A DNA stretch of 64,000 bases from Candidatus Omnitrophota bacterium (GTDB taxonomy: Bacteria > Omnitrophota > Gorgyraeia > Tantalellales > Tantalellaceae). Position 1 is the first letter of the stretch. Each line of letters opens with the position of its first letter. Location: assembly GCA_024277375.1 (NCBI GenBank), contig JAJRVD010000027.1, forward strand, positions 19,063-83,062, written 5' to 3'. The position numbers and the translations under genes are program-made. Of this stretch, positions 5,729-60,200 are shown piece after piece. Below the pieces are notes generated by a model. The model did not search any database. It was not told the origin of the DNA and was given only the letters and a program-made list of their open reading frames with translations.

Positions 5729-6607
5729 ATGGGGGAAGCTTTAGGAAATATGGATATAATTGTAGGCGTTGGTAAAAGTCTTGCGAAGAAGGCAATGAAG
5801 ATCTCAACTTTAAATGGAGGGAATATAAGTCCTGAAGCTATGGAGATCATTGCCGGCGAACAAAACAGAAGACATTACATTCATTTTATAAACAAAGCTG
5901 CGGTAACTTTTGTAGATAAGGATGAACTTCTCCGAGACGCTAAGGGCAAATACGAATTTGACGAGAAAAGAGCAAAAAGATTAGCAGACAATGTTGTGGG
6001 GGCATTAATTGTCGCTGCTGAAAATAAGGAAAAGCCATTGGAAGCGTTGATATTTGATCTGGAGCTTGGCAAAGGAAAGATGAGAAAGATCATAAGGGGG
6101 ATGGTTGAAGATGGCATAGTGAAGATAAAAAAGAACAATAAGGAGTTAGGTATATTTTTAGAAGGCGTCGAAATATTTTTTGGAGAGGGGGAAGTTTTTG
6201 CCAAAAGGATGGTAAACATTACGACCTTGGGCAAAGGCGTAAGAGATCCTGAGGGTCTTATAGTTATTTCTAATGACAAAAACAAAGAATATTATGCGGA
6301 GCTTATCAACAAAGCGACAATGACATTTGTTAACGATAGCGATCTTGCCGAGGATGATTTTGTGTGCCTGCCGGCTATTTTACTGTGTACTTTGGGTAAA
6401 TATCTAAATTGGCCGGTTGAAGATCTGATTAAGCATTACAAGAATATTCCAAATGCCAAAAAATATAGCGATGATTTTTATAAGAAATTATTTTCACCTA
6501 AGAATAAGACGTTATTGATTAAGCTTATACCAGGCGCGGCAAAAATAGATTTTAACAAGTCTGATGATCTAGTAGATGCTTGGGTAAGGATATTAAAGAG
6601 CGCGTAG
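5729..6607 (+). CDS. Hypothetical protein (292 aa) with an internal duplicated motif
   Basis: The ATG immediately follows the TAG of the upstream ORF, which suggests an operon. An internal repeat is present: HYIHFINKAAVTFVDKDEL (about nt 5873-5930) and EYYAELINKATMTFVNDSDL (about nt 6290-6350). No known domain is recognised. Confidence 0.45.
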   Translation: MGEALGNMDIIVGVGKSLAKKAMKISTLNGGNISPEAMEIIAGEQNRRHYIHFINKAAVTFVDKDELLRDAKGKYEFDEKRAKRLADNVVGALIVAAENKEKPLEALIFDLELGKGKMRKIIRGMVEDGIVKIKKNNKELGIFLEGVEIFFGEGEVFAKRMVNITTLGKGVRDPEGLIVISNDKNKEYYAELINKATMTFVNDSDLAEDDFVCLPAILLCTLGKYLNWPVEDLIKHYKNIPNAKKYSDDFYKKLFSPKNKTLLIKLIPGAAKIDFNKSDDLVDAWVRILKSA

Positions 6608-6621
6608 AGGCCGCTCCTACG
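6604..6621 (+). repeat. Partial copy of REP family B (AGGCCGCTCCTACG core)
   Basis: gtagaggccgctcctacg matches the core of the REP sequences that flank the RAYT gene at 55965-56526. It lies at the 3' end of pabB. Confidence 0.5.
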
Positions 6622-6622
6622 A

Positions 6623-8035
6623 TTATTTAGATAGGCTGTCTATGAGCGCGCGCGCCTTTACGAGAGTTTCTTCATATTCCAGCTCGGGGTCACTGTCGGC
6701 GACAATACCGCCACCCGCGGCGAAATATACTTCGGTCCCTTTTACTACCATTGTGCGGATAGCGATATTAAGGTCCATAGTATCATGGAAACTTATGTAG
6801 CCTATAGAGCCTGTGTAGATGCCCCTTTGTGTAGGTTCCAACTCATCCAGTATTTCCATAGCTCTTATTTTAGGGCAACCTGTTATTGACCCTCCGGGAA
6901 AAGCGGCTTTTATTACCTCCACCAGGCTTGAAGTTTTATTTTGCTCTCCTTGTATAACGGATATTGCCTGAAATACGGTAGGATATGTTTCGATCCTTCT
7001 GGATTCGACAACTCTGATCGATCCTGGTACGCAGACCCGGCCGAGATCGTTCCTCTCGAGGTCCGTTATCATGGATAGTTCCGCTGTATCTTTAGTGCTC
7101 GTGTCTAATTCAAGCTTAAGAGCTTTGTCTTCCTGGGGATTGCCTCCACGTCGGCGAGTTCCTTTCATGGGACGTGTCTCGATAGTGTTTTGGCGTTTTC
7201 TCAAAAAGAGTTCGGGGCTTGAGGAAATGATCTTAGAGTCTATAAAATTCAGATACGCGCTGAAGGGTGAGGGGTTTAATTTGTTTAGTTTTAAGTATAA
7301 ATCATATGGATCATGTGGCCATGTGGTTTTAAAGCGTTGAGAAAGACATGCCTGGTAGATGTCACCCGCGCGAATATGTTCGATAACGCTTTTTATGGCG
7401 TTGGTGTAGGATTTCTTGGTAAAATTTAATTCGATAGATCCTGATACTGATATTGGGGTCAGGTCTCCACATTTGACATTGTGAGGTCTTGTCGGAAGTG
7501 TCAAATGTGGAGACCTGACCCCAATATGCGCGACAGTGATCCGGCCAGGCTCTTGCCTGTCATAGATAAGGATCGTTCGGTAAAAAACAAAGTAGATATC
7601 GGGGAGGTCCAAGTCATCTTGCGCTTTTTGCGGCAGTATTTCCAGACGATCTTTAAGGTCATAGGACAGGTAGCCTATGCCTCCGGCGGTGAAAGGCAAG
7701 TTGGTCGTATTATTGGTTTTATAGTGTGTGAGTATGGACTCCAGGCATTTAAAAGGATCTTCCTGAATGCTGAAACTGTCCCTTTCAGTTCGAATGGTCA
7801 AGTTTGTGCCTTTGCCCTTAAAAGTGAGGAAGGGGTGCGTTCCGATAAAGGAATACCTGCCCGCATCTGTTTCAAGGGAGCTGTTCAGGAAAGAAGTGTC
7901 ATCTTGATCGGAGAAGTGAGAATAGAGATCCTCTATCGAACAGTTAATGGGGATTTGTTCGACAGTTGGGGTAGAGTTTATTTTTGGGAGATTTGATAAT
8001 AGTTCGCGGCCGGAGGCCGCTCCTGCGTTATTCAT
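6623..8035 (-). CDS. pabB: Aminodeoxychorismate synthase component I (PabB; chorismate-binding enzyme, TrpE/PabB family)
   Basis: C-terminal chorismate-utilising signatures are present: PGGSITGCPKIRAMEILDELEP, RGIYTGSIGY and AGGGIVADSDPELEYEETLVKA. These are near-identical in pattern to E. coli PabB. The 470-aa length fits. The first roughly 12 codons are encoded by a REP-B repeat, so the true start is uncertain. Confidence 0.8.
   Translation of the reverse strand: MNNAGAASGRELLSNLPKINSTPTVEQIPINCSIEDLYSHFSDQDDTSFLNSSLETDAGRYSFIGTHPFLTFKGKGTNLTIRTERDSFSIQEDPFKCLESILTHYKTNNTTNLPFTAGGIGYLSYDLKDRLEILPQKAQDDLDLPDIYFVFYRTILIYDRQEPGRITVAHIGVRSPHLTLPTRPHNVKCGDLTPISVSGSIELNFTKKSYTNAIKSVIEHIRAGDIYQACLSQRFKTTWPHDPYDLYLKLNKLNPSPFSAYLNFIDSKIISSSPELFLRKRQNTIETRPMKGTRRRGGNPQEDKALKLELDTSTKDTAELSMITDLERNDLGRVCVPGSIRVVESRRIETYPTVFQAISVIQGEQNKTSSLVEVIKAAFPGGSITGCPKIRAMEILDELEPTQRGIYTGSIGYISFHDTMDLNIAIRTMVVKGTEVYFAAGGGIVADSDPELEYEETLVKARALIDSLSK
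8002..8027 (-). repeat. REP family B copy (gttcgcggccggaggccgctcctgcg)
   Basis: A near-exact match to the REPs flanking the RAYT at 55965-55991 and 56501-56526. It contains the GCGGCC-GGAG-GCCGC hairpin. It overlaps the pabB start and the ispH stop. Confidence 0.7.
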
Positions 8036-17306: not shown

Positions 17307-17414
17307 GACGTAGGAGCGCCTTCCACCGCCGCCAAGGTCTTCGACGGACAGGCCGGCCGCGAACATAAAAATTGTCATCCTGAGCGAGGCCGTTAGGCCG
17401 AGCCGAAGGATCTC
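17307..17414 (+). repeat. Composite intergenic repeat: REP-B variant (gacgtaggagcgcc...ggccgcgaac) followed by REP family C (tgtcatcctgagcgaggcc...gccgagccgaaggatctc)
   Basis: Both halves recur elsewhere in the window. Family C is at 29647-29695, 42445-42521 and 55372-55415. Confidence 0.6.
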
Positions 17415-18597: not shown

Positions 18598-18693
18598 TAC
18601 GGATGATTTTTTTTGCTCGGTTATTTCAAACATTTTAAAAGCATATGAGGTGCAGGCGATGAAACTGTCATTGAGAAGAGGAGCTAAGAGCAA

Positions 18694-18733
18694 GGGGGAC
18701 AGCCTCTTTTTGGCCAAAAAGAGGCTGTCCCCC
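18694..18733. repeat. Palindromic repeat family A copy (gggggacagcctctttttggccaaaaagaggctgtccccc)
   Basis: A perfect hairpin. It lies inside the first 35 codons of the six-frame ORF 18650, so the real start of the giant gene is probably downstream at 18755. Confidence 0.65.
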
Positions 18734-18754
18734 TTGCTACGTTGTTCGCTCGTG

Positions 18755-21700
18755 ATGACGGGGAAGGGTATTGCCTCGCTGGTCACTTTGATAGCTTTTG
18801 TATTAAATATTTTAGGCGCGGAAGTTATTAGTATAAAAGCATATGCCGCTATTTCCCCTGAAATAGCTTCTACCAATCCCGCTGAGTATAATTTTCTGAA
18901 TGTCGATTCTTTTACATTACCCAAATACCTTGGAACCATAAAAGATTTGTGGAAGTCTGCCTCCGGACGAGACACGGTTATTCATATCCAGGACGCTCAT
19001 TGTAACTATGCCGCGCAGGATACGATAGCTAAGATGATAGAACGTATCGATTCGGAGTACGATATAGACGTGATAAATCTTGAAGGCGGCGCGGAGGATT
19101 ATGACCTGTCTTTGTTTACCGATATTGAGGATAAGGGCGTAAGACAAAAAGTAGTCGACTATTTTATGAAGCTTGGCATGGTCTCCGGTGCCGAAAGCTT
19201 TGTTCTTAATAATCAGGATAAAGCAAAGTTATGGGGCGTCGAAGACGTGGATCTTTATTTTGACAACCTTAGCGCCTACCGGAATTCGCTGGAGTACAAG
19301 GAAGAAGTTGACGGGTATCTTAAAATGCTCAGCCGTTTGCTGAATGAACTTAAAATAAACGTTTATTCGAACGAACTTTTGGAGTTTGATCTTAAATATT
19401 CCGCTTACAAGGCGGGTAATCTGGCTTTCAGAGATTATGTGATCTATATTCGTGATAAGGCCGCGAAATGTGCTATCGACATGGAGGAGTTTGAGAATAT
19501 TGCGTTATTGTCTGAGTCTCTTGAACTTGAGGGCAAAATTGATTTCAAAAAGGCCAATCGCGAGAGGGATATGCTCATAGAAGAGCTCCGGCGCATGGTC
19601 TCGAAAAACGAGCTTGAAAACCTGGTGCTCAAGACCTTACAGTTCAAGAAAAAGATAATTTCCCGGAAAGACTATTATACGTATCTTTTTGAAAAAGCGC
19701 GGCTTGTGAACATCGGCTTGGATGGGTTCGGCGAACTCAGGAAATACACTGACTATATCTCAAAGTATCAGACCGTTGATAGATCAAAGATATTAGAAGA
19801 AATGTCTATTATTGAGGATGCGATCAAGGATGTTCTATGCGTAAAAGATAAAGATCGTACGCTTGTCAGGTTGTCCAAGAATTTCGCGCTCCTAAAGAAC
19901 ATATTCAACGTCTCGCTCACAAAAGACGACTATGTGTATTACAAAACCAACGAACCCGCGTTCGCGGTGAAAAACTATATTTCATTCATTAAGGCTAACG
20001 ACTCATCATTGCGTGGAGCTGTGCCTTTCTCGCCGTTGCGAGGAGCCGACCTATCCTCTGTCATTGCGAGCCCGCCGAAGGCGGGAGAAGCAATCTCTGA
20101 AAACATCTATAATCTCGACCGCCACCGCGAACAAATATCCCGTTTTTACGAAGATGGCATCAAGCGTGACGATGCATTCTTGCGCAACCTCAGGTTTCAA
20201 CGTAAGCAGGGAGTAGGAAGCAGGGAGCAGGGTGTCGTAGGAGAGGCCTCTAGCCGTGAACAAAAAACGACAATTTTAGTTACCGGCGGATTTCACACCA
20301 AAAATTTATGCGAGCTGTTTAAAGAGAAAGGTATCTCCTACGTTTCTATCATGCCTAACTTCCGGAATGAGAATGGTTATGAAAGCCCGTATTTTAACCT
20401 TCTCGCTGGTAAGAAAAATGATGTAGCCGCGGCGCTTACAAGTGATATATCTTCGTTGGCGTTATATTCTGATTTATTGCAGAACGGTCTAAACAATGGA
20501 GATTTTACCTCGAATGTTAAAGCGGTTAGAAGGTTGTGGGTAAGTCTGGTTGCCGCTCAGATCAGGAAAAACGGGAGAAATGTCATATTCGGAGATATTA
20601 ATGGTCGTTATAGACGCTATTCATTCAACTCCGAAGATGGTGATCCTGTAGCGGGACTTACAATAAACGGAAAACAGGTATACGCAAGGAATTTTGGTGG
20701 GGAAAGATCCCTTCAGGCTGAAGCGAAGGCATTATATGAGGAAATTTCCAGAGATATTGTATCCTTTGCCGCGGAAAGAGAGGAGATAAAGTCCGCGGTT
20801 GTCAGGTTAAGAGAGATCTTTAGTACTTTTCCCGACGTTGTTATCTCTGAAGTGAGAAATTTCTGGGAAAATGAAAAAGAAAGCACCGGAAATGTTTTCA
20901 GAGCTGTCGAGTTCTTTGATCTGATGCCCGAGATAATGCTTAATGCGAAAGTAGAGCGGTTGAAAGAAGCGGCGTTGAGTTTTGTCGACCGTCAACTGGA
21001 ACATATTTTTGACAGAGAAAACGCGGTGGCCATATATAACGAGATAATATCTACCGACGAAGGTATTCCTCAAGACCTGCTCAAATACGCTTTGTACTAC
21101 AGGAATCTAAAGGAGGGTAAAACTCTTACGGATGAGCAGTTGGCCCTGCATGGCCTCAGCAGCAAAGAGGACTTCCCATATTCCCTCGAGGTCGATCGTG
21201 TCTTAAAACACAAGGATGATAGTAATCCTAAAAAACTTTTGCTTATTTATAATGCTGAACATACCAGTATGGTAGGGATGGGAGACCAGATATCAAATGT
21301 GGTTCCCCTGGTTCAGGCACTTAAGGATAAATATCCCAAGTTGGACATAACCATATATACGGATAAACCCTTTGTGTATGAGGCTCATGACAATGTCCGT
21401 GTATTTAGCATGTCTTCTCCCGGAATAAATGCCGAAGAGGTTTTTGATATGGCGATCGATTATTCGGACAGTAAGAGTCGAGAGGAATATCCGGATAAAT
21501 ATTTAGTTCAAGAAGCGCAGATCTCTATTGTAGGGGATTTCAATAATTTAACAGTTAAGGCTAAGGGGTTACCGCCTTTGGGCATAAAAGTTCGTAATCG
21601 AAGTAATGCATATTCATTAAGCTTACGGTTATGTGCCGAATTGAGACTTCCTGTCAGGATAGGAACAGAACAACCTCAGACAAGTTCGATAGTTCTTGGC

Positions 21701-27700: not shown

Positions 27701-29623
27701 AGCGCGGCGTCAACGGAAGAAATAAGTAACTTTGAGAAGAGTATAGAGGAGTTTCGCGGGGGAATAAGTAACATTGAATTAAAGAAAGCTGTAGAGCATG
27801 CTATAGCGTCGGGAGATACTAATACGTTAAAGAAGTTAGAAAATCTATCACGTCCGGATAAAAAGTCACGCGGATATGCTATCGGATCGATCGAAAAATT
27901 GTACGCGATGCGGCAAGAAGGTAGCGTGGTCGAAGCGGCTATGATAATCAAGAGCCTGCGCGGTATCAAAGATATTTCCGTCGGGGAACAGGAAAAAGAG
28001 CTCAGGACATTATATTCCTCCAGCAAAGAAAAGATTGAGGAGCTTATTCCGACATTGAGGTATATCCGCGGCAAAATGCAGGCTAAAAATAAACCCGTAG
28101 CGATAATTATAGGAGGAATGATTGGTTTATTGACAGGATTGGAAAAATTCTCAACAGGAAAGAGCGATATATTATCGGAGAAGAAAATCACGGCGGAAAT
28201 AAGTTTTGACCTGAAAGAGATCTTAAAAATAGGGCGTTACGGCGCCAGCGGCGAAGGTAATTGCCAGCATAGCAATAGTCCGGGTGAGAGCAACCATAGT
28301 TTAATGAGTTTTATAGGGGACGCTCATGAACTTATTATTCTGTTTAGAGATGATGACGGTATTGTCGTAGGGCAGGCGCTGATGCACGGAGTATACCTGG
28401 AGACCGGAGATTTTGTTTATATGAAAGAGGATGTTTACACTAATGATAATTCCCTGAAAGCGTTGATGGAAACCGCGGCAAGGAGAATGGGTAAGGCAAT
28501 AGCTAATTTTTACGGAATTAAAGTTTTAGATCCAGGGGCAGTCGAGAATAAAAAGATTTTTAATAACATAAAAATACCGCCAAGTAAGGTATTTCGTTAT
28601 TTAGACTCATTGGGCGGAGAAGTGTACACGTTTATGGAATCCATGCCGCTTGAAAAACCTTTATTGGCAGGGGTAGTTGAACCTATACACATTCGGGGCG
28701 GACGGGAAAGTAGCTATAGATTGTCTCCCATCGGCGGGATGTTGAGTGCGGATCAGCTGATCGCCCGTGCACAGGACCCTAAGATTTCTGCCGCGGAATT
28801 GGTCGGAAATCTGAAGCTGACCGGATTAGATCAAGCACATGTGGTTCAGGAGGCTTTGGCTGATCCGGAATATGCCGACAAGCTCAAAGAATTTAACAGG
28901 TTGCTTGCCAGGGCTCTGGGGGGAACCGAACTTGTCGAAAAGGCGAAAAGGGAGGAGAGGGAAGAAGCGATCGAAGATCGGCAGGCGGTGACGGTGGAGG
29001 TATTTGGGGAGGTTAACAGGAAAACCGATACGGTGAGAGCGGTTATAGGTGTTCCCAAAGGCATGCCGCAGAAAGTACTGCAGAAAATGCTTCGTGAAGT
29101 TAACAGAGGCCTTGCCAAAAATGGGTTTGGAGAGAGAAACGATACGCATCAGGTCATAGTGTTTGAAATGGATGCTGACAATAAAGATTTAACGGAAAGT
29201 AACCAGGCCGCGGCAGTAGAAAAAGCCCGGAAAGATCTATCCAAAAAAGGAATGATCGTTCTTTTTTCGCCCGAGACGGACAAGTTGCCGCTTGCGGAAC
29301 TCACGGTTGAAAAGTACAAGGATCAAGAAAATATTACTATTATCAGAGATGCTTATTCAGATTCCAAGCCGCAAGAAAAACAGTTCCTTGATGTTGATGT
29401 AAGGGCGGCACTCGCTAGGCATATAGCTTTTTATTATAACGGCAGTGATCAAGCATCCGCGATAAGCGCGATAAATGCTTTGATGAGGCAGATATCCGAT
29501 GAGCATAAGGACATATCGGATATAAACGAACTATTGGCCATGGTTGTTAGAATAAGGCCGATCGATTATGGGGAAATAACGCAGTGGGCCGAAGCGCAGA
29601 TAGCGACGGCAACGTCGCTGTAA
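18755..29623 (+). CDS. Giant (about 3620 aa) polytopic membrane multi-domain protein with an embedded GT9 (heptosyltransferase-like) domain
   Basis: A 10.9-kb open frame. The ATG at 18755 is the first start downstream of the family-A palindrome. An N-terminal TM helix is present. Region nt 18920-20450 carries IHIQDAHCNYAAQ and ILVTGGFHT, a weak resemblance to the TraB/GumN/ChaN fold. Region nt 21230-22110 matches the GT9 pattern: KKLLLIYNAEHTSMVGMGDQISNVVPLVQALKDKYPKLDITIYTD and ADHIVTVEGGTAHLAYNLGKTFTLVW. An HExxH motif (IIHELLHQL) is near nt 22835. There are two TM bundles, each beginning with the identical motif LLAGDLFAATP (nt 22339 and 24301). A further 4-helix TM bundle is near nt 25300-25600. 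Confidence 0.8.
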   Translation: MTGKGIASLVTLIAFVLNILGAEVISIKAYAAISPEIASTNPAEYNFLNVDSFTLPKYLGTIKDLWKSASGRDTVIHIQDAHCNYAAQDTIAKMIERIDSEYDIDVINLEGGAEDYDLSLFTDIEDKGVRQKVVDYFMKLGMVSGAESFVLNNQDKAKLWGVEDVDLYFDNLSAYRNSLEYKEEVDGYLKMLSRLLNELKINVYSNELLEFDLKYSAYKAGNLAFRDYVIYIRDKAAKCAIDMEEFENIALLSESLELEGKIDFKKANRERDMLIEELRRMVSKNELENLVLKTLQFKKKIISRKDYYTYLFEKARLVNIGLDGFGELRKYTDYISKYQTVDRSKILEEMSIIEDAIKDVLCVKDKDRTLVRLSKNFALLKNIFNVSLTKDDYVYYKTNEPAFAVKNYISFIKANDSSLRGAVPFSPLRGADLSSVIASPPKAGEAISENIYNLDRHREQISRFYEDGIKRDDAFLRNLRFQRKQGVGSREQGVVGEASSREQKTTILVTGGFHTKNLCELFKEKGISYVSIMPNFRNENGYESPYFNLLAGKKNDVAAALTSDISSLALYSDLLQNGLNNGDFTSNVKAVRRLWVSLVAAQIRKNGRNVIFGDINGRYRRYSFNSEDGDPVAGLTINGKQVYARNFGGERSLQAEAKALYEEISRDIVSFAAEREEIKSAVVRLREIFSTFPDVVISEVRNFWENEKESTGNVFRAVEFFDLMPEIMLNAKVERLKEAALSFVDRQLEHIFDRENAVAIYNEIISTDEGIPQDLLKYALYYRNLKEGKTLTDEQLALHGLSSKEDFPYSLEVDRVLKHKDDSNPKKLLLIYNAEHTSMVGMGDQISNVVPLVQALKDKYPKLDITIYTDKPFVYEAHDNVRVFSMSSPGINAEEVFDMAIDYSDSKSREEYPDKYLVQEAQISIVGDFNNLTVKAKGLPPLGIKVRNRSNAYSLSLRLCAELRLPVRIGTEQPQTSSIVLGPGSEEADMWWEENVVLKNTEKRKVVFLNPYGGEWKEKGYIYNDRLVKDIEALLEDGNYIVISPNDTRWGTREKIEEMLKLLDAAKQKYITISKGPSEAGNLIKHWLYRADHIVTVEGGTAHLAYNLGKTFTLVWKRGAGLLHDIPPMCDLGQELIPIGGKPQDIVDAVKRAFESDDEGSKVTSIGTGILRKTKTVLSGLLVFLAGSSALQILLAGDLFAATPDAIMQATATPWGWIAVVVVAGFIVYRYFAMSAERMGTKVIPLGIAGLIFMGVQCSYAAALSPREGKTKILVSSAEFQEKQQQIREMIKGLADSEEHLSGKERELLEGILSLIEDGDIKIKYDPERNYAYADKENKEVGLPESSFMDRYRLASAIIHELLHQLCAKRNIDFSDKIKTSGFNDSNDYWQWLDPGEEGWVLRNTMMIMNQIPMEALGLKLLLAEVPNQESFNTQILTYDNEPITNVDRIIELAKDPEMVMEKRRFLVKLLPLISLNIAEKVGNTGIIRPVDAETSKEAEEALLALKKYYESEQNILATKHKILKNNKKRPKLVNGAVRLSWKDPSKLTSEDKDLVEWWSNVKLLETIELSRRMLNESKVSVDKKLDEFTVLIVDGIKREMKVSDLRIGMARMLYGSEEKLVKDVLRELKPWEIDLIVYYQKEIRIKLKQTISYYEGREFEFNKNNLTGAISTIMMSLLRDVSKTEYNSIYDHNNRGLKWDDPGRWHGLTFDDRWYEIGNLNGLSYNYYNEHRKNETEEEKYKADNPNRPKNFVNNNATKGFRVDMRETYLFMRFYPEELAKIVKKDRGVAAKVELLEEYMGKLKRNVNKTAKWRGDRQKKKESEKTSDGINTLKGIMAFAIALPLVQMLLAGDLFAATPGVLVPSIFNSFNVIGFLLTVVCLGLAGLILYYDTNDADEWDDIPESESIRAWQVLLGGREWEKMGKEFTDRLAILTPQESENRTLLFEFLERFGRKDLLAHIKRKPDEFLPVLEHLRGSEFISGYFGELLYRVDRSGEKEQELLDLDLKTEPLKVWELIDILIEVDSFQQDLYEFLTKDTAYSAIPGQQYLPLNVNVVNVVGQMVEETRSANRVNIRGNLIAISGQFPGYYAAICDSILRNPARILEFDIAPEVVERNLKFLQPENSKDHITSFEGFVAFLKRESKVTDNMGKSPIGKGVLDISKRVFKFFGKEITPVVENTWIPVFEELVMFLVLAGGYLGGLFVLSALPYILTRIIFTAWHLKNESGTWLQKMLVPGIASVFALIPVMAVLVLPAVSAELMLAAALALGTGTHVLGNRRVHKKRMDAFKRIFEEKKETLVKQVSDEELLDEFIGYLDVNVKELFGIGLLLEIREFSKSIPLSRDEQTRRGRQRAILLMAGLNVSETELYKENQRKIEEERVIAEDLNGMENIHDLIEGKFVTVKQLKRAIELSAGNITSALETLNKLKDVIKKHGIDELFELADLERVSNNVPWNCFEWVDYDSARDLLDQYGIKPFLKMRRLGVGEYSYRSIDSYSLTLRGIFNLVRDMRDGDISERYGISVTGSNVEKITINIIKEKISLKGPSSLPVNMFPEDEIEFLEKSHEDTYRRESEKNMDRYLNREKHKKAILSYMLLCERYGPDNIRRLVRDNVLEKWSEKVESIKDQLRDLKSVIDLPSVGIEPFVEFSGGNEDGLWPLTFIEKEKWAQFLTSILIQRGDVTAKNKRLSDLYINNMLASVGNNIVPNVSMINVIAELLTHNAQSGVHPVESFLLSALGEAGLNKGSIEKILEYLAKNKKSEIKRSQIIRALAGIYWGFKYERFSAGTIDTRMINAIIETEDTRRLSAALNFIPALIDLLESGILAKEEIETGTRSGNIVDKIGGLLKSKIEETFSIKISDTDLEVQAALSDTYFLADLFSFRRKYKEEDENAYKIFLGLVKAYFENGSKGVREYKNSNELVNVQIPERIKEKGFEQLSRLRTFARSGEGEEMSVFDRLFKTTLRNYDEHSKEMKFDPGSISAASTEEISNFEKSIEEFRGGISNIELKKAVEHAIASGDTNTLKKLENLSRPDKKSRGYAIGSIEKLYAMRQEGSVVEAAMIIKSLRGIKDISVGEQEKELRTLYSSSKEKIEELIPTLRYIRGKMQAKNKPVAIIIGGMIGLLTGLEKFSTGKSDILSEKKITAEISFDLKEILKIGRYGASGEGNCQHSNSPGESNHSLMSFIGDAHELIILFRDDDGIVVGQALMHGVYLETGDFVYMKEDVYTNDNSLKALMETAARRMGKAIANFYGIKVLDPGAVENKKIFNNIKIPPSKVFRYLDSLGGEVYTFMESMPLEKPLLAGVVEPIHIRGGRESSYRLSPIGGMLSADQLIARAQDPKISAAELVGNLKLTGLDQAHVVQEALADPEYADKLKEFNRLLARALGGTELVEKAKREEREEAIEDRQAVTVEVFGEVNRKTDTVRAVIGVPKGMPQKVLQKMLREVNRGLAKNGFGERNDTHQVIVFEMDADNKDLTESNQAAAVEKARKDLSKKGMIVLFSPETDKLPLAELTVEKYKDQENITIIRDAYSDSKPQEKQFLDVDVRAALARHIAFYYNGSDQASAISAINALMRQISDEHKDISDINELLAMVVRIRPIDYGEITQWAEAQIATATSL

Positions 29624-32521: not shown

Positions 32522-32609
32522 ACGTAGAAGTCGTATTATCCTTCGGATAATGGGCGGCGAACAATAAATTTATTCGCGGTCCATCGCCGAAGGCGATACC
32601 GCTCCTACG
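32522..32609. repeat. Inverted doublet of REP family B variants (acgtagaagtcgtattatccttcgg ... ccgaaggcgataccgctcctacg)
   Basis: The two arms are reverse complements of each other (about 22/25 positions). They are separated by an AT-rich spacer gcgaacaataaatttattcgc. Confidence 0.6.
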
Positions 32610-33173: not shown

Positions 33174-33220
33174 TGCAGAGGTTGCCACGTCGTCCGCTTC
33201 GCGGACTCCTCGCGGTCGAA

Positions 33221-33331
33221 TTGTGTCGTAATTCGTTTTGCGGACGCTCGCATGCAATATATCGTAGGGGTTTGATCCATAGAACCCGATATAACGGGCT
33301 TGATGAACCAAGCCCCTACATTATGACACAG
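33221..33331 (+). repeat. Family D structured repeat, copy 2
   Basis: ttgtgtcgtaattcgttttgcgg...gtaggggtttgatccatagaacccgatataacgggcttgatgaaccaagcccctacattatgacacag. It is 55 nt upstream of purH. Confidence 0.7.
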
Positions 33332-33385
33332 CTTGAATGACGGGAGAGGCACTGTACGCTAAACGCTAGAAAAAAGGAAGTTTTC

Positions 33386-39760: not shown

Positions 39761-39835
39761 ACGTAGGAGCCGCCTCTGGCGGCGAATTGTAAATAATGTT
39801 CGCGGAATATCACCGAAGGTGATACCGCTCCCACG
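39761..39835. repeat. Inverted doublet of REP family B variants (acgtaggagccgcctctggcggcgaa ... ccgaaggtgataccgctcccacg)
   Basis: Same architecture as 32522-32609. It lies between the L,D-transpeptidase and accA. Confidence 0.6.
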
Positions 39836-44528: not shown

Positions 44529-44872
44529 GGATATTCCAGGAAGATAAGAAAGTTCGAACGCCCCGGTAAAATGGAGAAGGTATCAGAAGCTAAGCTATCA
44601 GACTTGTTGGCGGAATTCGGGATCAAGAAAAACATACAAGATCATGACAAAATAAAAGCTATCAGTAAAATGCAGCGGATGAGAGAGGAACACACCGAAC
44701 ATTTGCTTGAGAAAAAAGATGAGAGTAGGTTTGATCAGATGCGTGATGATAAAAAAAATGACAGATCCTCGGGCGGCGGTCAGAAACACTAGGGTTAGAT
44801 TGGTCACACTGCCAAGTGGTCAATAAATAGGCTTGTGCAAAATGGAACTTTTGTTATTCAGGGTGTGTCGTA

Positions 44873-44977
44873 ATTCGTTTTGCGGATGACAGCATACAAC
44901 ATATTGTAGGGGTTCGATTCATCGAACCCGATATAACGGGCTTGATAAATCAAGCCCGTACATTATGACACAGTCTG
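44873..44977 (+). repeat. Family D structured repeat, copy 3
   Basis: gtgtgtcgtaattcgttttgcggatgacagcatacaacatattgtaggggttcgattcatcgaacccgatataacgggcttgataaatcaagcccgtacattatgacacagtctg. It lies between the two FecR-domain paralogues. Confidence 0.7.
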
Positions 44978-45030
44978 ATAAAAAACAGCGTTTCGCACAA
45001 GTCTAGTCAATGAATACAAAGGAGGGTGAT

Positions 45031-49011: not shown

Positions 49012-49092
49012 AATACCTGAGAAGCATGAAGTAAAATAGAAGCGGGATCTGCCCGCGAACCAAAAAAGTGTCAAAATATCAAAAGGAAAAAT

Positions 49093-52609: not shown

Positions 52610-55116
52610 TGAAATTATATAATTTCAATGAAATAGAGGAAACCTGGCAGGACTGGTGGCGCGAGACGGGTCTGTTCAAGGTTGATGAAAAAAACATTAA
52701 AGATAAATACTATTGTCTGATGATGTTCCCTTATCCGTCCGCGGCCCTGCATGTCGGTCATGGACGCAATTATATAATTGGCGATGTTGTGGCCAGATAT
52801 AACATGATGAAGGGGCTTAATGTCCTTACTCCTATGGGCTGGGACGCGTTCGGTCTGCCCGCTGAAAACGCGGCTATCAAAAATGGGATCGATCCCAAAA
52901 AGTCTACACTTAGCAATATTAACATGATGAAAGCTCAGTTGGCTTCCTGGGGTGTAAATTACGATTGGGATCGTGAGGTTACTTCATGCATGCCGGACTA
53001 TTATAAATGGACCCAGTGGATATTTCTGAAATTATATGAAAAAGTACTTGCGTATCGAAAAAATGCTTTCGTTAACTGGTGCTCTTCGTGTAATACGGTT
53101 CTCGCGAACGAACAGGTCATAGATGGAGCTTGCGAAAGATGTGATACCGAGGTCGATCAAAAAAGGCTGGAACAATGGTTTTTTAAGATCACGGATTACG
53201 CGCAGAAACTTATCGATGACCTGGATAAACTGGATGAATGGCCGGATAAGGTTAAAACAATGCAACGCAACTGGATCGGTCGATCAGAGGGTGTGAATAT
53301 CGATTTTCCTGTCTGTCATTCTGAGGCCTCGCCTGTCCCGAGTGAAGTCGAGGGGAAGAGCCCGAAGGATCTCAACCTTACCTGTTTTACTACCCGTGTA
53401 GATACTATTTATGGCTGTACATATATGGTTCTTGCCGCCGAGCATCCTATGATAGAAGAGCTCATAGCCGATAATCCCGAAAAAGACAAGATAATGAAAT
53501 TTGTGCAGGAAGTTCGCTCTAAATCACGCATACAACGCGTACAAACAGATACCGAAAAGAGAGGTATCTTTACGGGGCGTTACGTAATAAATCAGGTGAA
53601 TGGCAGGAAAATACCTTTATGGATAGCCGATTATGTCCTTATGGAATATGGCACGGGAGCCGTTATGGCAGTTCCCGCGCATGATCAGAGAGATTTTGAA
53701 TTCGCTAAAAAGTATGACCTCCCCGTCGAAGTCGTTATAGATGATCCAAAGGATCATCTAGATGCCGGTAAGTTGACCGAAGCTTATGAGAACGAAGGCG
53801 TGCTTACCGCTTCAGCGCAGTTTGACGGAATGAAAAATAAAGACGCGATGGAGTCTATAGCCGACTACATGGAAAAAGAAAAGATCGGCGAGAGAACTAT
53901 TCACTTCAAACTCAGAGACTGGCTTATTTCACGCCAAAGATATTGGGGCGCTCCCATACCGATGGTATATTGCGATAAGTGCGGTATTGTCCCGGTCCCG
54001 GAGGAAGACCTGCCTGTTCTTCTCCCCGAAGGTGTGGAATTCAGGCCCACGGGCGAATCCCCTTTAAAAGAAGCCTCGGATTTTGTTAAGACAACGTGCC
54101 CTGAATGCGGAGGAAATGCCAGGCGTGAAATTGATACTATGGATACTTTTGTGGATTCAAGCTGGTACTACCTGAGATATATATCACCGAAGGCTGATGA
54201 CAAGCCTTTTGAAAAGGCTGACGTGAACGGCTGGTTGCCGGTAGATCAATATATCGGTGGGGTAGAGCACGCGATATTGCACTTACTGTATTCGCGTTTT
54301 ATTACCAAAGTTCTTTCCGATATGGATTATATAGGCTTTGATGAGCCGTTCAAGCGTCTTTTTACTCAAGGGATGATAGTTAAAGACGGCGCTAAGATGT
54401 CTAAATCTAAGGGCAATGTGGTAGATCCGGCTGAACTTATAAAAAAATATGGAGCGGACACGGTTCGTTTGTATACACTCTTTTTAGGCCCGCCGGAAAA
54501 AGACGCCGAGTGGTCGGATAGGGGAGTTGAAGGGTCGTTCAGATTTGTAAAAAGAGCATGGAATCTTCTTGAAGTTCTTGGATCAGCGCCTGAGTTTGAG
54601 GGGAATAAAGAGGCCTCTCTGGGGCTTTTAAGAAAAATGCATCAGACCATAAAAAAGGTAACAGATGACATAGAGGATTCTTTTCATTTTAACACGGCCA
54701 TAAGTGCTGTTATGGAGCTTGTCAATTATGTGTACTCCGGGTTGAATGATAACGGCAAAGATTGTTTTAGCAAAAAATGTATGGAAGAAGTAGTAAAGAA
54801 TATGACGCTTCTCTTGGCGCCGTTCGTGCCGCATATCGCGGAAGAGATGCATAAACAAACCGGTGGAGAGAAGAGCGTTTTTGAGGAAACCTGGCCGTCT
54901 TTTAACGAAGATATGTTAGTGGAAGACATTATAGTTATTCCTGTCCAAGTTAATGGTAAACTTCGAAATACCATAGAGATGGCTAGAGGCATTGACGAAG
55001 AGACGGTCAGGGAGACCATTTTAGCGGACGATAAAACGAAGCCATGGTTAGAGGGTAAACAGATCCGCAAGTGGATAATAATCCCCGATAAGTTAGTGAA
55101 TATAGTTGTGCAGTAG
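52606..55116 (+). CDS. leuS: Leucine--tRNA ligase
   Basis: HIGH motif HVGHGRNYIIGDV, KMSKS motif KMSKSKGN, and the editing and Zn-binding regions are present. 836 aa. Confidence 0.9.
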   Translation: MMKLYNFNEIEETWQDWWRETGLFKVDEKNIKDKYYCLMMFPYPSAALHVGHGRNYIIGDVVARYNMMKGLNVLTPMGWDAFGLPAENAAIKNGIDPKKSTLSNINMMKAQLASWGVNYDWDREVTSCMPDYYKWTQWIFLKLYEKVLAYRKNAFVNWCSSCNTVLANEQVIDGACERCDTEVDQKRLEQWFFKITDYAQKLIDDLDKLDEWPDKVKTMQRNWIGRSEGVNIDFPVCHSEASPVPSEVEGKSPKDLNLTCFTTRVDTIYGCTYMVLAAEHPMIEELIADNPEKDKIMKFVQEVRSKSRIQRVQTDTEKRGIFTGRYVINQVNGRKIPLWIADYVLMEYGTGAVMAVPAHDQRDFEFAKKYDLPVEVVIDDPKDHLDAGKLTEAYENEGVLTASAQFDGMKNKDAMESIADYMEKEKIGERTIHFKLRDWLISRQRYWGAPIPMVYCDKCGIVPVPEEDLPVLLPEGVEFRPTGESPLKEASDFVKTTCPECGGNARREIDTMDTFVDSSWYYLRYISPKADDKPFEKADVNGWLPVDQYIGGVEHAILHLLYSRFITKVLSDMDYIGFDEPFKRLFTQGMIVKDGAKMSKSKGNVVDPAELIKKYGADTVRLYTLFLGPPEKDAEWSDRGVEGSFRFVKRAWNLLEVLGSAPEFEGNKEASLGLLRKMHQTIKKVTDDIEDSFHFNTAISAVMELVNYVYSGLNDNGKDCFSKKCMEEVVKNMTLLLAPFVPHIAEEMHKQTGGEKSVFEETWPSFNEDMLVEDIIVIPVQVNGKLRNTIEMARGIDEETVRETILADDKTKPWLEGKQIRKWIIIPDKLVNIVVQ

Positions 55117-55371
55117 CAATAGTAAACACAGTTCGAATTCTTTCCCCGCGGAAATTTTTAACGCTTTTTTATCTTATTCTTAGCCCCGGCAAAACTCGTC
55201 CTTGATCAAACAAGTTTGTTCAAGGACTCAAACAGTTGCCGGTAGGTAGTTTGCCTTGCGAACAAGCTGAAAAGGCTAAATTTCCGAGGGGCCCCTTTAA
55301 TCCGAACTGTTTTTACTGTATTCACTCATTCATCGACGGCTGTATCTGCCGGTATTTCAAGTTCCCGCGAG

Positions 55372-55415
55372 CTGTCATCCTGAGCGAGGCCCGAAGGGCC
55401 GAGTCGAAGGATCTC
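55372..55415 (+). repeat. REP family C copy (ctgtcatcctgagcgaggcccgaagggccgagtcgaaggatctc)
   Basis: Matches 17373-17414 at about 90% identity. It carries an internal ggcc-N-ggcc hairpin. Confidence 0.6.
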
Positions 55416-55530
55416 ATAATATTGAATAAACAACATTTTTATTATACTTAACTTTGACTTAAAAGATAAGATATATTGAATAAAAATCAATAAAATGATA
55501 AAATTAAGAGCAACAGAAAGATAGTTGACA

Positions 55531-55590
55531 ATAGGAGCAATGGGGACAGCCTCCTTTTGACCAAAAGGAGGCTGTCCCCATTGCTCCTAT
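55531..55590. repeat. Family A-type perfect 28-bp-stem palindrome (ataggagcaatggggacagcctcctttt-gacc-aaaaggaggctgtccccattgctcctat)
   Basis: The two arms are exact reverse complements. It ends 18 nt upstream of the comEA start codon. Confidence 0.7.
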
Positions 55591-55608
55591 TGCCAGGAGA
55601 GATGAATT

Positions 55609-55965
55609 ATGGAACAAAAATCCGATTATTCTGAAAGAATAGTGCTGATCGGTCTTTGCGTTATATTATTCGCGGGTGCACTGTTCCTGAATGAGAAAGA
55701 CTCTCTTCAAGTCGAACGGCCGGATCTTATGAAAATTAAAGAGTTCTTGGATGAGAGGAAAATAGTTAATATAAATTCGGCTACTCCCGGTGAACTTACA
55801 GATCTTCCCGGGATCGGGAACGTGATGGCTCAAAGGATAGTGAAATATAGAAATGAGAATGGTAGTTTTAGTTTCGCTGATGATCTGTTAAAAATTAAAG
55901 GTATAGGCCCGAAGAAACTCGAGAAGATGAAGAGCTACATTAACGTAGGAGTGGCCTCAAGATAA
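55609..55965 (+). CDS. comEA: ComEA-like competence protein (TM anchor plus tandem helix-hairpin-helix DNA-binding motif)
   Basis: INSATPGELTDLPGIGNVMAQRIVKYRNENGSFSFADDLLKIKGIGPKKLEKM. The last 6 codons are REP-B sequence. Confidence 0.7.
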   Translation: MEQKSDYSERIVLIGLCVILFAGALFLNEKDSLQVERPDLMKIKEFLDERKIVNINSATPGELTDLPGIGNVMAQRIVKYRNENGSFSFADDLLKIKGIGPKKLEKMKSYINVGVASR

Positions 55966-56526
55966 CGTAGGAGCGGCCTCCGGCCGCGAACATTATGAAA
56001 AAAATTCACAAACAAAATAATTTACGAAAGGCCAGGATATACAATTCGGAATATCCGTACTTTGTAACAATTTGTACCGACAGTGGGCAGGAGTTGTTTG
56101 TGGGGAAAAATATTCCGGAATTATTGATAGAGAGCATTAAATGGTTCGCGGATAATTCATTGATACTGAATCTCGGATTTGTGATTATGCCTGATCACTT
56201 ACATTGGGCGTTTGCTTTAGTAAGGGGAGAAAAATTGGATAATATTATGCGACGATACAAAAATTGTACCGCTCAAAAGAGAAAAGATCTTAAAGATGAT
56301 GACATTCGGATGTGGCAAAAAGGATGTTATGATCACTTATTGAGGAATGTATAGGATTGTGAAGTAAAACTCAAATATATGCATAACAACCCTGTTCGAA
56401 AAGGCCTGGTAGATATCCCAGAGGAATATCTATACTCTACAGCTAATGAGAAATACACGGATATGATAAATTGGGAGTATGTCTGGGGTTTATGAAATAT
56501 GTTCGCGGCCGGAGGCCGCTCCTACG
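55943..56526 (+). mobile_element. REP-RAYT unit: IS200/IS605-like Y1 HUH transposase gene flanked by inverted REP family B copies
   Basis: Left REP at 55965-55991 (acgtaggagcggcctccggccgcgaac), with a partial copy at 55943-55958. Right REP at 56501-56526 (gttcgcggccggaggccgctcctacg) is the exact reverse complement. It is inserted in the 560-bp gap between comEA and comEC. Confidence 0.75.
55995..56495 (+). pseudogene. REP-associated tyrosine transposase (RAYT, IS200-like TnpA) with an in-frame TAG at 56352-56354 between the HUH and catalytic Tyr motifs
   Basis: The HUH motif is VIMPDHLHWAF. The same frame continues after the TAG as DCEVKLKYMHNNPVRKGLVDIPEEYLYST. This is the Y-x3-NPV-K/R-GLV catalytic-Tyr region typical of RAYTs. 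The total would be 166 codons. Confidence 0.7.
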
Positions 56527-58092
56527 ATGAAAAGGCCGATATTATTGTTGATAATTTCATATTTCGCGGGATTAATAGTTGTCGGGGTGACCGGAATTGC
56601 GATAGTTCCCGGGATTACAGTCGTCTTAATAACGTTTATTACTCTATCCGCCGTATTCTCGAAGAAGAAAAAAGTTTTTTATGCGCTTCTATGTGTTTTC
56701 TTTTTTTTGTTGGGAATTTTTAGATACTCTTCTGCCGTAACACCGGGCGCGGGGAATATATGTAATTTTGTGTCTGAAGAACCTGAGAGAGCTGTTCTTT
56801 ACGGAATTGTCGCTAGCCCCGGCGAGCATAAAGGGAAGTCATTTCGGGAACGTTTTGTGTTCCAGATAAAAGCGGAACGGCTGCTTATAGATGGGGAGGA
56901 ACATAAGGTTACGGGAGGCGTACAAATAGACCTTTATTCTTTGCGCAAGAAGCCCGCATTGGGGAATAGATTGGTTATTGGCGGTAAAATATTTCTGCCA
57001 AAAGGGGAAAGCGGACCCGATGGTTTTGACTATAAGGCTTACCTAAAGCGAAATAGTATTTACGCGGTAATGAGATCTTCGGAGGATGATTATTTTTTAA
57101 AGGTTGAGACCGGAAAGAACCCGATTATGCAATGCCAGCGATTTCTTTCGGAGGCCAGGACCCAAACGGACAGGCTATTCACCAAATATCTTCATGGTCA
57201 GACTCGTGACATTACCCGATCCATAGTTCTCGGCCTGCGTAGTACTCTAACCAAAGGCACAACTACCATATTCAGAAGGACAGGTACGATGCATATCCTG
57301 GCGGTAAGCGGTTTGCATATAGGGGTTGTAGCACTGATGTTGATGGGATCTTTGAAACTTATCAAGTGTCCGAAGATGGTAATGTGTTTCCTTGTGATAG
57401 CCGGGATATGTTCGTTTGCTGTTTTTACGGGCGCGCGAACATCTTCGATACGCGCCGCGATAATGGCGTCGTTCCTCTTGGTGGGTTTGGCGATGGAATG
57501 GAGGGTAGACATAATAAATACACTCATCCTGTCAGCGTTTATAATTACGTTTTTTCTCCCGGGGCAATTATTTCAACCGGGTTTTATCCTCTCGTACACA
57601 GCGGTCCTTTCGATAATTTACATAACACCCGTTACGGATCGGATGTTGAGAATCGTAAAGGGCGAAAGGTTTGAAAGCAGGATGGCGAGAATCCGGAGGT
57701 ACGCGTTAAAGTCAGTATCGGTATCGGTCGCGGTGTGGATAGGTATGGCCCCGGTGATCGCGGCATATTTCAACATAGTTACGCCTTCGGTGATATTGTC
57801 TAATCTTGTAGCGATCCCGATGCTTATAGTCGTGATCGGCCTGGGTTTTTCTCTGGCATTGGTTGGCGCGGTAAAGATTCTTGTGCCGATAGCCTTTGCT
57901 GTTTCCGGCATCCTGAATTTTTTGATACCACTTTTTTTAAAGACACTCCGGGACATCTCCAGTGTGCCTTTTTCGTTTATCGAAGTGCCCACGCCAAATT
58001 GGTTATTTATAGCGGGATACTATGCCGTTCTGGCGGGAGGATTAGTGAGAATTCGTTCAAACTGGTACGCCCGACAGGATTCGAACCTGTGA
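56527..58092 (+). CDS. comEC: ComEC/Rec2-family DNA internalisation channel protein (lacks C-terminal metallo-beta-lactamase domain)
   Basis: The ATG at 56527 immediately follows the right REP. A DUF4131-like N-terminal region is present (DYKAYLKRNSIYAVM). The competence-domain signature is HILAVSGLHIGVV. Polytopic. The last 10 codons overlap tRNA-Arg on the opposite strand. Confidence 0.75.
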   Translation: MKRPILLLIISYFAGLIVVGVTGIAIVPGITVVLITFITLSAVFSKKKKVFYALLCVFFFLLGIFRYSSAVTPGAGNICNFVSEEPERAVLYGIVASPGEHKGKSFRERFVFQIKAERLLIDGEEHKVTGGVQIDLYSLRKKPALGNRLVIGGKIFLPKGESGPDGFDYKAYLKRNSIYAVMRSSEDDYFLKVETGKNPIMQCQRFLSEARTQTDRLFTKYLHGQTRDITRSIVLGLRSTLTKGTTTIFRRTGTMHILAVSGLHIGVVALMLMGSLKLIKCPKMVMCFLVIAGICSFAVFTGARTSSIRAAIMASFLLVGLAMEWRVDIINTLILSAFIITFFLPGQLFQPGFILSYTAVLSIIYITPVTDRMLRIVKGERFESRMARIRRYALKSVSVSVAVWIGMAPVIAAYFNIVTPSVILSNLVAIPMLIVVIGLGFSLALVGAVKILVPIAFAVSGILNFLIPLFLKTLRDISSVPFSFIEVPTPNWLFIAGYYAVLAGGLVRIRSNWYARQDSNL

Positions 58093-58139
58093 CCCTCTGC
58101 TTAGAAGGCAGATGCTCTATCCAGCTGAGCTACGGGCGC
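58063..58139 (-). tRNA. tRNA-Arg (anticodon TCT)
   Basis: The reverse complement is gcgcccgtagctcagctggatagagcatctgc-ctTCTaa-gcagagggtcacaggttcgaatcctgtcgggcgtacca. Confidence 0.8.
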
Positions 58140-58147
58140 TCCAAGTT

Positions 58148-58231
58148 TGGTGCGGATGAAGGGATTCGAACCCCCACGGTAAAACCACTGGCTCCTAAGG
58201 CCAGCGCGTCTGCCAGTTCCGCCACATCCGC
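58148..58231 (-). tRNA. tRNA-Leu (anticodon TAG)
   Basis: The reverse complement is gcggatgtggcggaactggcagacgcgctggc-ctTAGga-gccag + long variable arm + gggggttcgaatccc...cacca. Confidence 0.8.
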
Positions 58232-58247
58232 ATTTATGCATATATAG

Positions 58248-58325
58248 TGGTCGGGAAGGTGGGATTCGAACCCACGACCCCCTGCTCCCAAAGCAGGTAC
58301 GCTAGCCAAACTGCGCCACTCCCCG
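58248..58325 (-). tRNA. tRNA-Pro (anticodon TGG)
   Basis: The reverse complement is cggggagtggcgcagtttggctagcgtacctgc-ttTGGga-gcagggggtcgtgggttcgaatcccaccttcccgacca. Confidence 0.8.
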
Positions 58326-58550
58326 AAATATTCTCAAAATAGAAACCTCATTATAGCAATGCCGTTTTTCGAAGTCAAGAACTGTTCGATATTTACCCGA
58401 TCCGGGTCTTTTCCGGGCCCTTTCCAGACCTTTCAGAAACTTCTTGTCTGCCAAATAGTACTGTAATATAATAACTTATCTTTTTTATGCAGGGAGTAGG
58501 GGCACAGCATACCGTGCTTCCACGTATACGAAATTACAAACAGAGAGGAT

Positions 58551-60065: not shown

Positions 60066-60080
60066 CGGATCCCCGTCTTT

Positions 60081-60200
60081 CAGACTATGTCAAGATGTAG
60101 GGGCTTGATTTATCAAGCCCGTTATATCGGGTTCGATGAATCGAACCCCTACAACATTATTGCAGGCAGCCCGTCGCGAAATGACTTTTGGTACAGTCTG
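60081..60200 (-). repeat. Family D structured repeat, copy 4 (inverted orientation)
   Basis: The reverse complement reads cagactgtacc...gtaggggttcgattcatcgaacccgatataacgggcttgataaatcaagcccctacatcttgacatagtctg. The core and outer stem are conserved and the 5' arm has diverged. Confidence 0.65.

Follow-up and report, generated by a model that had tools for sequence, protein, structure and literature searches.

We analysed a 64,000-nucleotide (nt) stretch of DNA from a Candidatus Omnitrophota bacterium (GenBank assembly GCA_024277375.1, contig JAJRVD010000027.1, positions 19,063 to 83,062 of the forward strand), hereafter the window, in which a gene for a REP-associated tyrosine transposase (RAYT) lies between the competence genes comEA and comEC, bracketed by two inverted repetitive extragenic palindromes (REPs). 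On the plus strand the order is comEA, left REP, RAYT open reading frame (ORF), right REP (reversed) and comEC, and the ORF contains a TAG codon upstream of the codon for its presumed catalytic tyrosine. The features of the locus are as follows.

55609..55965, plus strand: comEA-like gene, 118 amino acids (aa), with an N-terminal membrane helix and a helix-hairpin-helix DNA-binding domain
55941..55958, plus strand: half-REP that repeats the REP head, TAACGTAGGAGTGGCCTC, within the 3' end of comEA, found by repeat search (17/18 identical, 94%)
55966..55993, plus strand: left REP, an exact 28-nt inverted repeat with 56499-56526, with a hairpin predicted at -11.8 kcal/mol
55995..56495, plus strand: RAYT (TnpA-REP) gene, 166 codons with TAG at codon 120, a pseudogene as written
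56352..56354, plus strand: TAG in frame at codon 120, eight codons 5' of that for Tyr128
56499..56526, minus strand: right REP, exact reverse complement of the left REP, ending at the base before the comEC ATG
56527..58092, plus strand: comEC-like gene, 521 aa (Pfam Competence 173 bits and DUF4131 72 bits)

The translation of the RAYT gene was scored through the TAG, with codon 120 entered as X. It matched the NCBIfam model NF047646 (REP_Tyr_transpos, REP-associated tyrosine transposase) with 99.8 bits (cut-off 80) over profile positions 2-146 of 146, spanning the TAG, and its best match by sequence in the PDB was TnpA-REP of E. coli (4ER8_A in entry 4ER8; E = 4.7e-6). By a hand count on this alignment, H68/H70 of the window protein correspond to H59/H61 of 4ER8, Q108 to Q95 and R117 to R104; in the C-terminal part the TAG falls on K107, Y128 on Y115 and N132 on N119. 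The HUH motif D67-H68-L69-H70 (56193-56204, with H68-L69-H70 at 56196-56204) is aligned with E. coli H59-M60-H61, and in an alignment of 16 sequences H70 is invariant and H68 nearly so. The presumed catalytic Tyr128 (56376-56378) lies 3' of the TAG in the Y---NP motif Y128-M-H-N-N132-P133. DHLH, WQ and Y---NP are class 2 (TnpA-REP) signatures according to Quentin et al. 2018 (PMC6006769). An initial annotation, made from the letters of the window, had described an IS200-like HUH transposase in a REPtron arrangement, with a TAG at 56352 between its HUH and Tyr motifs. The TAG is placed as described (MPDHLHW lies 5' of it and YMHNNPVRKGLV 3'), and the segment after it aligns with the catalytic region of RAYTs, a check that the annotation had proposed. 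The REPtron assignment is borne out by the NF047646 score above cut-off, by the match to 4ER8 and by the recurrence of REP(+)-RAYT-REP(-) at seven homologue loci described below. Judged by its sequence, the ORF is thus a member of the RAYT family by descent and a pseudogene by state.

The two REPs had been annotated as exact inverted 26-nt repeats, and CGTAGGAGCGGCCTCCGGCCGCGAAC is indeed found at 55966-55991 (+) and 56501-56526 (-) with 0 mismatches (0 expected from shuffles); the complementarity reaches 28 nt (28/28). The arms lie 1 nt 5' of the RAYT ATG and 3 nt 3' of its TGA. Each REP consists of a GTAG head, an unpaired GA, a 6-bp stem GCGGCC, a loop TCC, the complementary stem GGCCGC and a GAA tail. 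The family as a whole has the same anatomy (GTAG head, GA, 6-bp G+C stem, 3-5-nt loop, complementary stem, GAA) and can be written as the motif GTAGGAGCGG...CCGCGAA. When stem covariation was counted only at loci that had not been picked by the REP pattern, 54 instances of GT[AG]GGA-stem-loop-stem'-GAA were found with ten distinct, perfectly complementary 6-nt stems (GCCGCC, GCGGCC, GCCGTC and others), and none in shuffles. Therefore, compensatory change maintains the hairpin.

A database search returned ten complete proteins that are 50-61% identical to the RAYT over nearly the full length, and the named ones are from Candidatus Omnitrophota. They are mostly of 165-166 aa, the longer ones (186-212 aa) being so through terminal extensions, and more distant RAYTs are at most 39% identical. 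The layout REP(+)-gene-REP(-) was present at all seven close-homologue loci that were inspected (46-61% identical, and from Candidatus Omnitrophota wherever a taxon label is given), where the GTAG head points outward, REP(+) ends 3-12 nt before the start codon and REP(-) lies just past the stop. These homologues reside in at least five neighbourhoods, namely prfB/secA, carbamoyltransferase/SxtJ-like, glgC/tRNA-Ala-leuS, Rex-like and amino-acid permease. Some RAYT "proteins" carry terminal extensions (e.g. RSGLLAANEE repeats; L201 4001-4105; P0003 and P0001) that are translations of the flanking REPs and therefore gene-calling artefacts.

The REP of one orthologous locus (L001), CGTAGGAGCGGCCTCCAGGCCGCGAAC, has one extra loop base relative to the window REP, while the two RAYT proteins are about 60% identical. 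Exact matches to GTAGGAGCGGCCTCC(N)GGCCGCGAA, a core of 24-25 nt, were found in at least 114 stretches of species-representative genomes. Among the matches listed are six Omnitrophota assemblies and metagenome-assembled genomes of at least seven phyla, with labels including Gamma-, Beta- and Zetaproteobacteria, Thermodesulfobacteriota, Desulfobacteraceae, Gemmatimonadales, Verrucomicrobiia, Nitrospirota and Latescibacterota. In a metagenome-assembled genome labelled "delta proteobacterium" (L157 4799-5450), a RAYT only 30% identical to that of the window is bracketed by doublets of this REP core; the REP has been conserved far more strongly than the enzyme. A REP core common to at least seven phyla, next to RAYTs that can be as little as about 30% identical, argues either for extreme conservation of the REP type or for a cross-phylum spread of REP-RAYT systems. 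A full-text search of the literature with the REP head string returned unrelated papers only. Nested REPs were also seen (L004 1-760 / L204; L001 4890-4990), in which inverted copies lie a few bases past the GTAG head of another REP, as in TAACGTAGCAATA[TTCGCCGCC...CTCCTACG]GACAGGTTAGCCGTGAAC, with short direct repeats of the head, AACGCATTCGTAG, around such apparent insertions. They may mark a preferred insertion point of the window REP family.

Both members of the DNA-uptake pair that flanks the cassette are recognized by profiles, and the two genes are adjacent in relatives. The comEA product scored 77 bits with Pfam HHH_3 and 62 bits with TIGR00426 (ComEA HhH region; cut-off 53). The start of comEC is supported by a public 521-aa gene call (P0096, 100% identical) that begins at the ATG at 56527, and the proteins of relatives likewise begin with MKRP or MYRP. 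The initial annotation had noted that the last codons of comEA are REP-encoded and that the comEC ATG abuts the right REP, and both statements proved correct. REP-derived sequence accounts for the comEA stop and the seven sense codons before it: the half-REP is a direct repeat of 55963-55980 at an offset of 22 nt and encodes the final ComEA codons (NVGVAS), and the TAA stop (55963-55965) touches the left REP. Accordingly, the C-terminus reads ...SYINVGVASR* in the window and ...EYIKIEP* or ...EYIRLD* in relatives.

Three relatives share the synteny of leuS...comEA-comEC (ComEC 46-48% identical, LeuRS up to 72%). In a comparison that had been suggested as a check on the insertion, their comEA and comEC proved to be adjacent, with spacers of 199 nt and 110 nt that contain no RAYT and with no spacer of 560 bp. 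Because these spacers are free of RAYT and orthologous units are found in five or more other contexts, the economical reading is that the REP-RAYT-REP unit was relocated into the comEA-comEC spacer in the lineage of the window. The relatives' spacers contain other GTAG-type palindromes, and the gap seems from these to be a habitual REP site. Alternatively, the cassette may be ancestral at comEA-comEC and have been lost or moved in the sampled relatives, with no recent insertion. The same palindromes could be its remnants as well as a sign of a habitual site, and one orthologue lies across leuS in the same chromosomal neighbourhood (L004/L204). However, the RAYT is lacking in 3/3 syntenic relatives, including the ones with the closest LeuRS, and the contexts of the orthologous RAYTs are unrelated to one another. 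We therefore consider an ancestral cassette unlikely and prefer a lineage-specific arrival. Insertion into a resident REP was tried as a further candidate and rejected: the 3' half of such a REP was sought to the right of the cassette, where the sequence is the conserved N-terminus of comEC (MKRP).

The TAG is the single in-frame stop of the RAYT frame, which contains no other stop or frameshift. Codon 120 is Lys, Arg or Gly in the ten close homologues (AAG in the L001 orthologue), and across 84 homologous loci it is Glu in 41, Lys in 15 and Gln in 8 (64/84 for the three together) and a stop in none. Identity to the ten closest homologues is 59-80% for residues 121-164 and 46-60% for residues 8-119. 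Since the downstream reading frame is intact and well conserved, the lesion should be recent (or not real). Two aromatic positions that are invariant in the ten closest homologues are Cys in the window (Y111C and F122C), both near the TAG, which hints at relaxed constraint and real decay. In-frame stops at positions other than codon 120 occur in 2/84 homologous RAYT loci, so that disrupted RAYTs are not rare. The best reading of these sequences is that the TAG arose as a recent nonsense mutation, for which a change of AAG (Lys) to TAG would be the simplest path. The 119-aa product would keep the HUH motif, lack the nucleophile and the C-terminal DNA-contact region, and should be catalytically dead. 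The initial annotation likewise regarded the RAYT as inactive unless there is readthrough, in agreement with E. coli TnpA-REP, of which the Y115F mutant is inactive and C-terminal deletions of 21-34 residues are defective in binding and cleavage (PMC8266576).

Taken together, the locus is very probably a REPtron, i.e. a RAYT between inverted cognate REPs, that sits in the comEA-comEC spacer and whose transposase is disabled by the TAG. Several points weigh against this reading. The TAG is known from a single assembled sequence and could be an error of the consensus or an allele carried by a minority; an intact gene would account equally well for how conserved the post-TAG segment is; and the exact truncated RAYT product is not on record, the closest RAYT locus of a metagenome scan being 61% identical at the protein level. 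Near-identical copies of the 26-mer number only three in the window and the other members are quite diverged, so that a direct link between the window RAYT and all the diverged REPs is an assumption. A second, intact RAYT possibly keeps the REP population active, the window covering 64 kb of the genome. Finally, the cassette had been described as inserted precisely between the two genes. The insertion is supported by the RAYT-free spacers of the relatives, which are too diverged (ComEC 46-49% identical) for an empty-site alignment, and its precision at the nucleotide level is thus beyond reach.

The first of these points corresponds to the alternative that the RAYT is actually intact, the TAG having come from faulty assembly or sequencing or representing a minority allele in a population that codes Lys, Glu or Gln at this position. 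This would be consistent with the absence of further stops and frameshifts, with the identity of the 44 post-TAG codons, which exceeds that of the N-terminal part, with the perfect identity of the flanking REPs, and with a metagenome-type contig represented by its consensus sequence alone. However, substitution errors are rare in an assembled consensus, Y111C and F122C lie within 12 codons of the TAG as expected of a decaying gene, and RAYT decay is unexceptional given the stops at other loci. Moreover, public proteins include the ComEA and ComEC of this contig and no RAYT product, which would fit an uncalled or disrupted gene. We give an intact RAYT a small chance.

It is far less probable that the TAG is read as a sense codon, whether through programmed readthrough, a suppressor tRNA or pyrrolysine, with a low level of full-length RAYT throttling REP mobility. 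The frame is open and conserved past the TAG, and recoding often keeps transposase expression low. However, TAG is a normal stop codon in this genome fragment: it terminates 12 of the 42 ORFs of the window, among them leuS, which has a second stop two codons on. No CUA anticodon was found among the five tRNAs of the window, and an Rfam search of the window returned tRNAs only and no known recoding RNA element. These results, together with the absence of stops at codon 120 in the homologues (0/84), led us to reject stop-codon reassignment or recoding. An autonomous IS200/IS605-type insertion sequence, or a TIRYT flanked by terminal inverted repeats (TIRs), that landed by chance between comEA and comEC is equally improbable and the IS200/IS605 identity was rejected, since the protein, although it shares the Y1 HUH superfamily, weakly matches Pfam Y1_Tnp (20.4 bits, just under the threshold of 23) and is encoded in a unit whose different placement in different genomes looks like whole-unit mobility, scored 14.8 bits with the IS200/IS605 model NF033573 (cut-off 55) and above the cut-off of the RAYT model, has Y---NP (class 2) and not Y---Q (class 1), is encoded by one RAYT copy in the 64-kb window as against many gene-free copies of the flanking repeat including doublets, has no adjacent tnpB-like ORF, and is bounded by perfect inverted dispersed GTAG REPs instead of the dissimilar subterminal hairpins of the IS200 type or unrelated TIRs.

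For the disabled REPtron that we favour, a mechanism can be proposed from the known enzymes. RAYTs (TnpA-REP) are class 2 Y1 HUH endonucleases, i.e. domesticated single-strand-DNA transposases. Binding, cleavage and rejoining of REPs on single-stranded DNA are known for the enzymes of E. coli, S. maltophilia and Marinomonas (PMC8266576). By homology, the RAYT of the window would have bound the REP hairpin on single-stranded DNA, with the 5' GTAG tetranucleotide as recognition and guide element, and would have cleaved and rejoined DNA beside the hairpin via a covalent tyrosine intermediate, whereby REPs and REP doublets would spread into intergenic gaps. The REP-RAYT-REP unit may then have come to occupy the comEA-comEC spacer with its GTAG heads pointing outward, and REP sequence may have taken over the last codons and the stop of comEA and come to abut the start of comEC. 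A later nonsense TAG eight codons before the catalytic Tyr would have removed the catalytic half. Because homologues that are 46-61% identical lie in at least five unrelated neighbourhoods, always within the same tight REP brackets, we tentatively suggest, against the usual view of REPtrons, that the REP-RAYT-REP of Omnitrophota may relocate as a whole; the window would perhaps show a unit that recently landed and then lost its catalytic half.

Other members of the REP family in the window are listed below.

6606..6621, minus strand: partial or degenerate REP head
8002..8027, minus strand: REP copy, near-exact (25/26), where ispH and trpE meet, four bases past the ispH stop
17309..17335, plus strand: partial or degenerate REP head
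20236..20260, plus strand: diverged member, in frame inside the ORF 18650-29623 (3657 codons) and translated as ...VVGEASSRE...
32523..32609: REP doublet of long-stem variants, 32523-32561 (+) and 32573-32609 (-), intergenic, with GTAG heads outside
39762..39835: REP doublet (REPIN-like), 39762-39786 (+) and 39799-39835 (-), with GTAG heads outside
49036..49059, plus strand: partial or degenerate REP head

The member at 20236-20260 and the four arms of the two doublets (32523-32561, 32573-32609, 39762-39786 and 39799-39835) make up five full but diverged members, each of which has a head, a hairpin and a GCGAA tail. The doublet at 39762..39835 combines a short-stem REP on the plus strand (GCCGCC/GGCGGC, a compensatory variant) with a long-stem REP on the minus strand and takes up the space that separates accA from an L,D-transpeptidase gene. 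For the ORF 18650-29623, a Pfam search gave no match at E <= 0.001 in the first 2333 residues. The initial annotation had counted eight or more other REP sites in the window, some of them inverted doublets. The doublets are real, two of them being clear; the count stands if degenerate and partial copies are included and falls short on full members alone (six, next to three or four partial copies, the fourth being the half-REP in comEA). The copy at 8002-8027 would encode TrpE residues 3-11, provided that trpE starts at the ATG at 8035.

The window contains further repeat families. A second, unrelated one of about 124 nt (18464-18587, 33214-33337 and 44856-44979 on the plus strand, 60080-60157 on the minus strand) has an outer inverted repeat, GTGTCGTAAT... 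/ ...ATTATGACAC, around a GTAG-headed hairpin doublet, GTAGGGGTTCGATTTATCGAACCC + GGGCTTGATGAATCAAGCCCCTAC. It resembles a second REPIN family, for which the window contains no RAYT. A third family consists of near-perfect palindromes of 54-70 nt built on GGGGACAGCCTC...GAGGCTGTCCCC (18233-18286, 18685-18738 and 55526-55595), of which the one between leuS and comEA adjoins the ribosome-binding site of comEA on its upstream side. A fourth family, GGGACAGTCCACGCACTC...GGGACAGTCCC, occurs at 30766, 32250 and 51151 (-).

The REPs may also bear on the expression of the competence genes. A promoter and terminator scan of 55100-58500 found sites no more commonly than in shuffles and no terminator-like site between comEA and comEC. 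Given this, the co-orientation of the genes and gaps to the REPs of 0-31 nt, it is plausible that comEA, RAYT and comEC are on one transcript. The right REP contributes a GGAGG (56511-56515), 11 nt 5' of the comEC ATG and partly inside the hairpin, and the left REP hairpin begins right after the comEA stop codon. In the window, five REP heads (6606-6621, 8002-8027, 17309, 39762 and 55966) lie 0-14 nt past a stop codon (comEA 0, trpE 1, ispH 4, a NUDIX gene 7 and the L,D-transpeptidase gene 14). When a REP of E. coli lies this near to a stop codon, it reportedly lowers translation of the gene upstream (Liang, Rudd & Deutscher 2015). By analogy, a lowering of comEA translation by the left REP hairpin can be taken as a lead.

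A metallo-beta-lactamase domain (Lactamase_B) was not found in the window ComEC by a Pfam search. Most of its nearest homologues, which are of 805-851 aa and share 46-49% identity with it, have this domain, and there are also short forms (504-525 aa). The last ~10 codons of comEC overlap a tRNA-Arg(TCT) gene on the opposite strand (58063-58139), the first of three tRNA genes (Arg, Leu and Pro). Among 88 RAYT loci fetched independently of ComEC, two have a ComEC gene within 4 kb (L083 3947-7740 and L048 11-4483), as against roughly 0.2 expected (Poisson P about 0.02, post hoc), and coincidence is possible. In L083 the RAYT is directly 5' of a split ComEC, and the RAYTs of both loci are each associated with a different REP family.

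The locus is a system of a known kind, an ordinary REP-RAYT module. To our knowledge, nearly all work on REP-RAYT systems has been done in Proteobacteria, and Candidatus Omnitrophota is part of the Planctomycetes-Verrucomicrobia-Chlamydiae (PVC) group. What is modestly new is a compact, well-conserved REPtron clade in Candidatus Omnitrophota, a disrupted RAYT copy inside a competence gene pair, and the recruitment of REP sequence as gene ends, with REP-derived sequence at the C-terminus and stop of ComEA and directly before the comEC start. The RAYT would be early in decay, a state in which models of REPIN populations predict the onset of repeat-family erosion. For annotation, the locus teaches that a disrupted RAYT of this type is neither an insertion sequence nor evidence of stop-codon recoding.

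The term REPtron is used here as in Nunvar 2010, Bertels & Rainey 2011 (PMC3116915) and Ton-Hoang 2012 (PMC3333891). The E. coli REPtron, TnpA-REP (RayT/YafM, PDB 4ER8) with its REPs and bacterial interspersed mosaic elements (BIMEs) (PMC3333891; Messing 2012, PMC3479197; Corneloup 2021, PMC8266576), encodes a protein of the same family and similar size (~165 aa), in which the HUH, Gln, Arg, catalytic Tyr and Asn are aligned with those of the window, and its inverted GTAG-headed hairpins likewise flank the gene and recur in intergenic gaps. However, the similarity is weak at the E-value given above, the window has DHLH and WQ where E. coli has EHMH and WE, and the window REP has a perfect 6-bp stem, a GA spacer and a GAA tail in place of a long bulged stem. 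Moreover, there is one REP per side and not clusters, the host belongs to Omnitrophota, and the gene is disrupted.

The REPIN-RAYT systems of Pseudomonas and Xanthomonas (Bertels group 3; Quentin subclass 2.5; PMC3116915, PMC3733652) share with the window DH[LF]H, WQ, short REPs and inverted doublets with heads outside (REPINs) in short intergenic gaps. They differ in having YI[VI]ANP, whereas the YMHNNP of the window is closer to the patterns of subclasses 2.4 and 2.6, in protein size (median ~151 aa against 166 aa) and in host phylum. By the verbal description of the GTAG-1/GTAG-2 repeats in PMC3733652, a family that takes in the Pseudomonas REPs, the window REP (GTAG-GA-GCGGCC-TCC-GGCCGC-GAA) fits in its unpaired dinucleotide and its 3-bp far-side motif.

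IS200/IS605 elements such as IS608 belong to the same HUH-Y1 fold superfamily and share the single-stranded DNA chemistry guided by a tetranucleotide 5' of a hairpin; unlike them, the window unit is without Y---Q and tnpB, is present once in the 64 kb, and ends in identical inverted dispersed REPs. TIRYTs/TIRtrons (Di Nocera 2013, PMC3733652; Quentin subclass 2.1) also place a RAYT-like gene within inverted repeats, but theirs are long TIRs unrelated to REPs and their proteins are of ~238 aa with extra C-terminal domains, in contrast to the GTAG REPs and the short protein of the window. By the account given in PMC3733652, GTAG REPs were already known from the PVC superphylum and from a number of further phyla, and RAYT-like genes have a patchy distribution over multiple phyla (PMC6006769).

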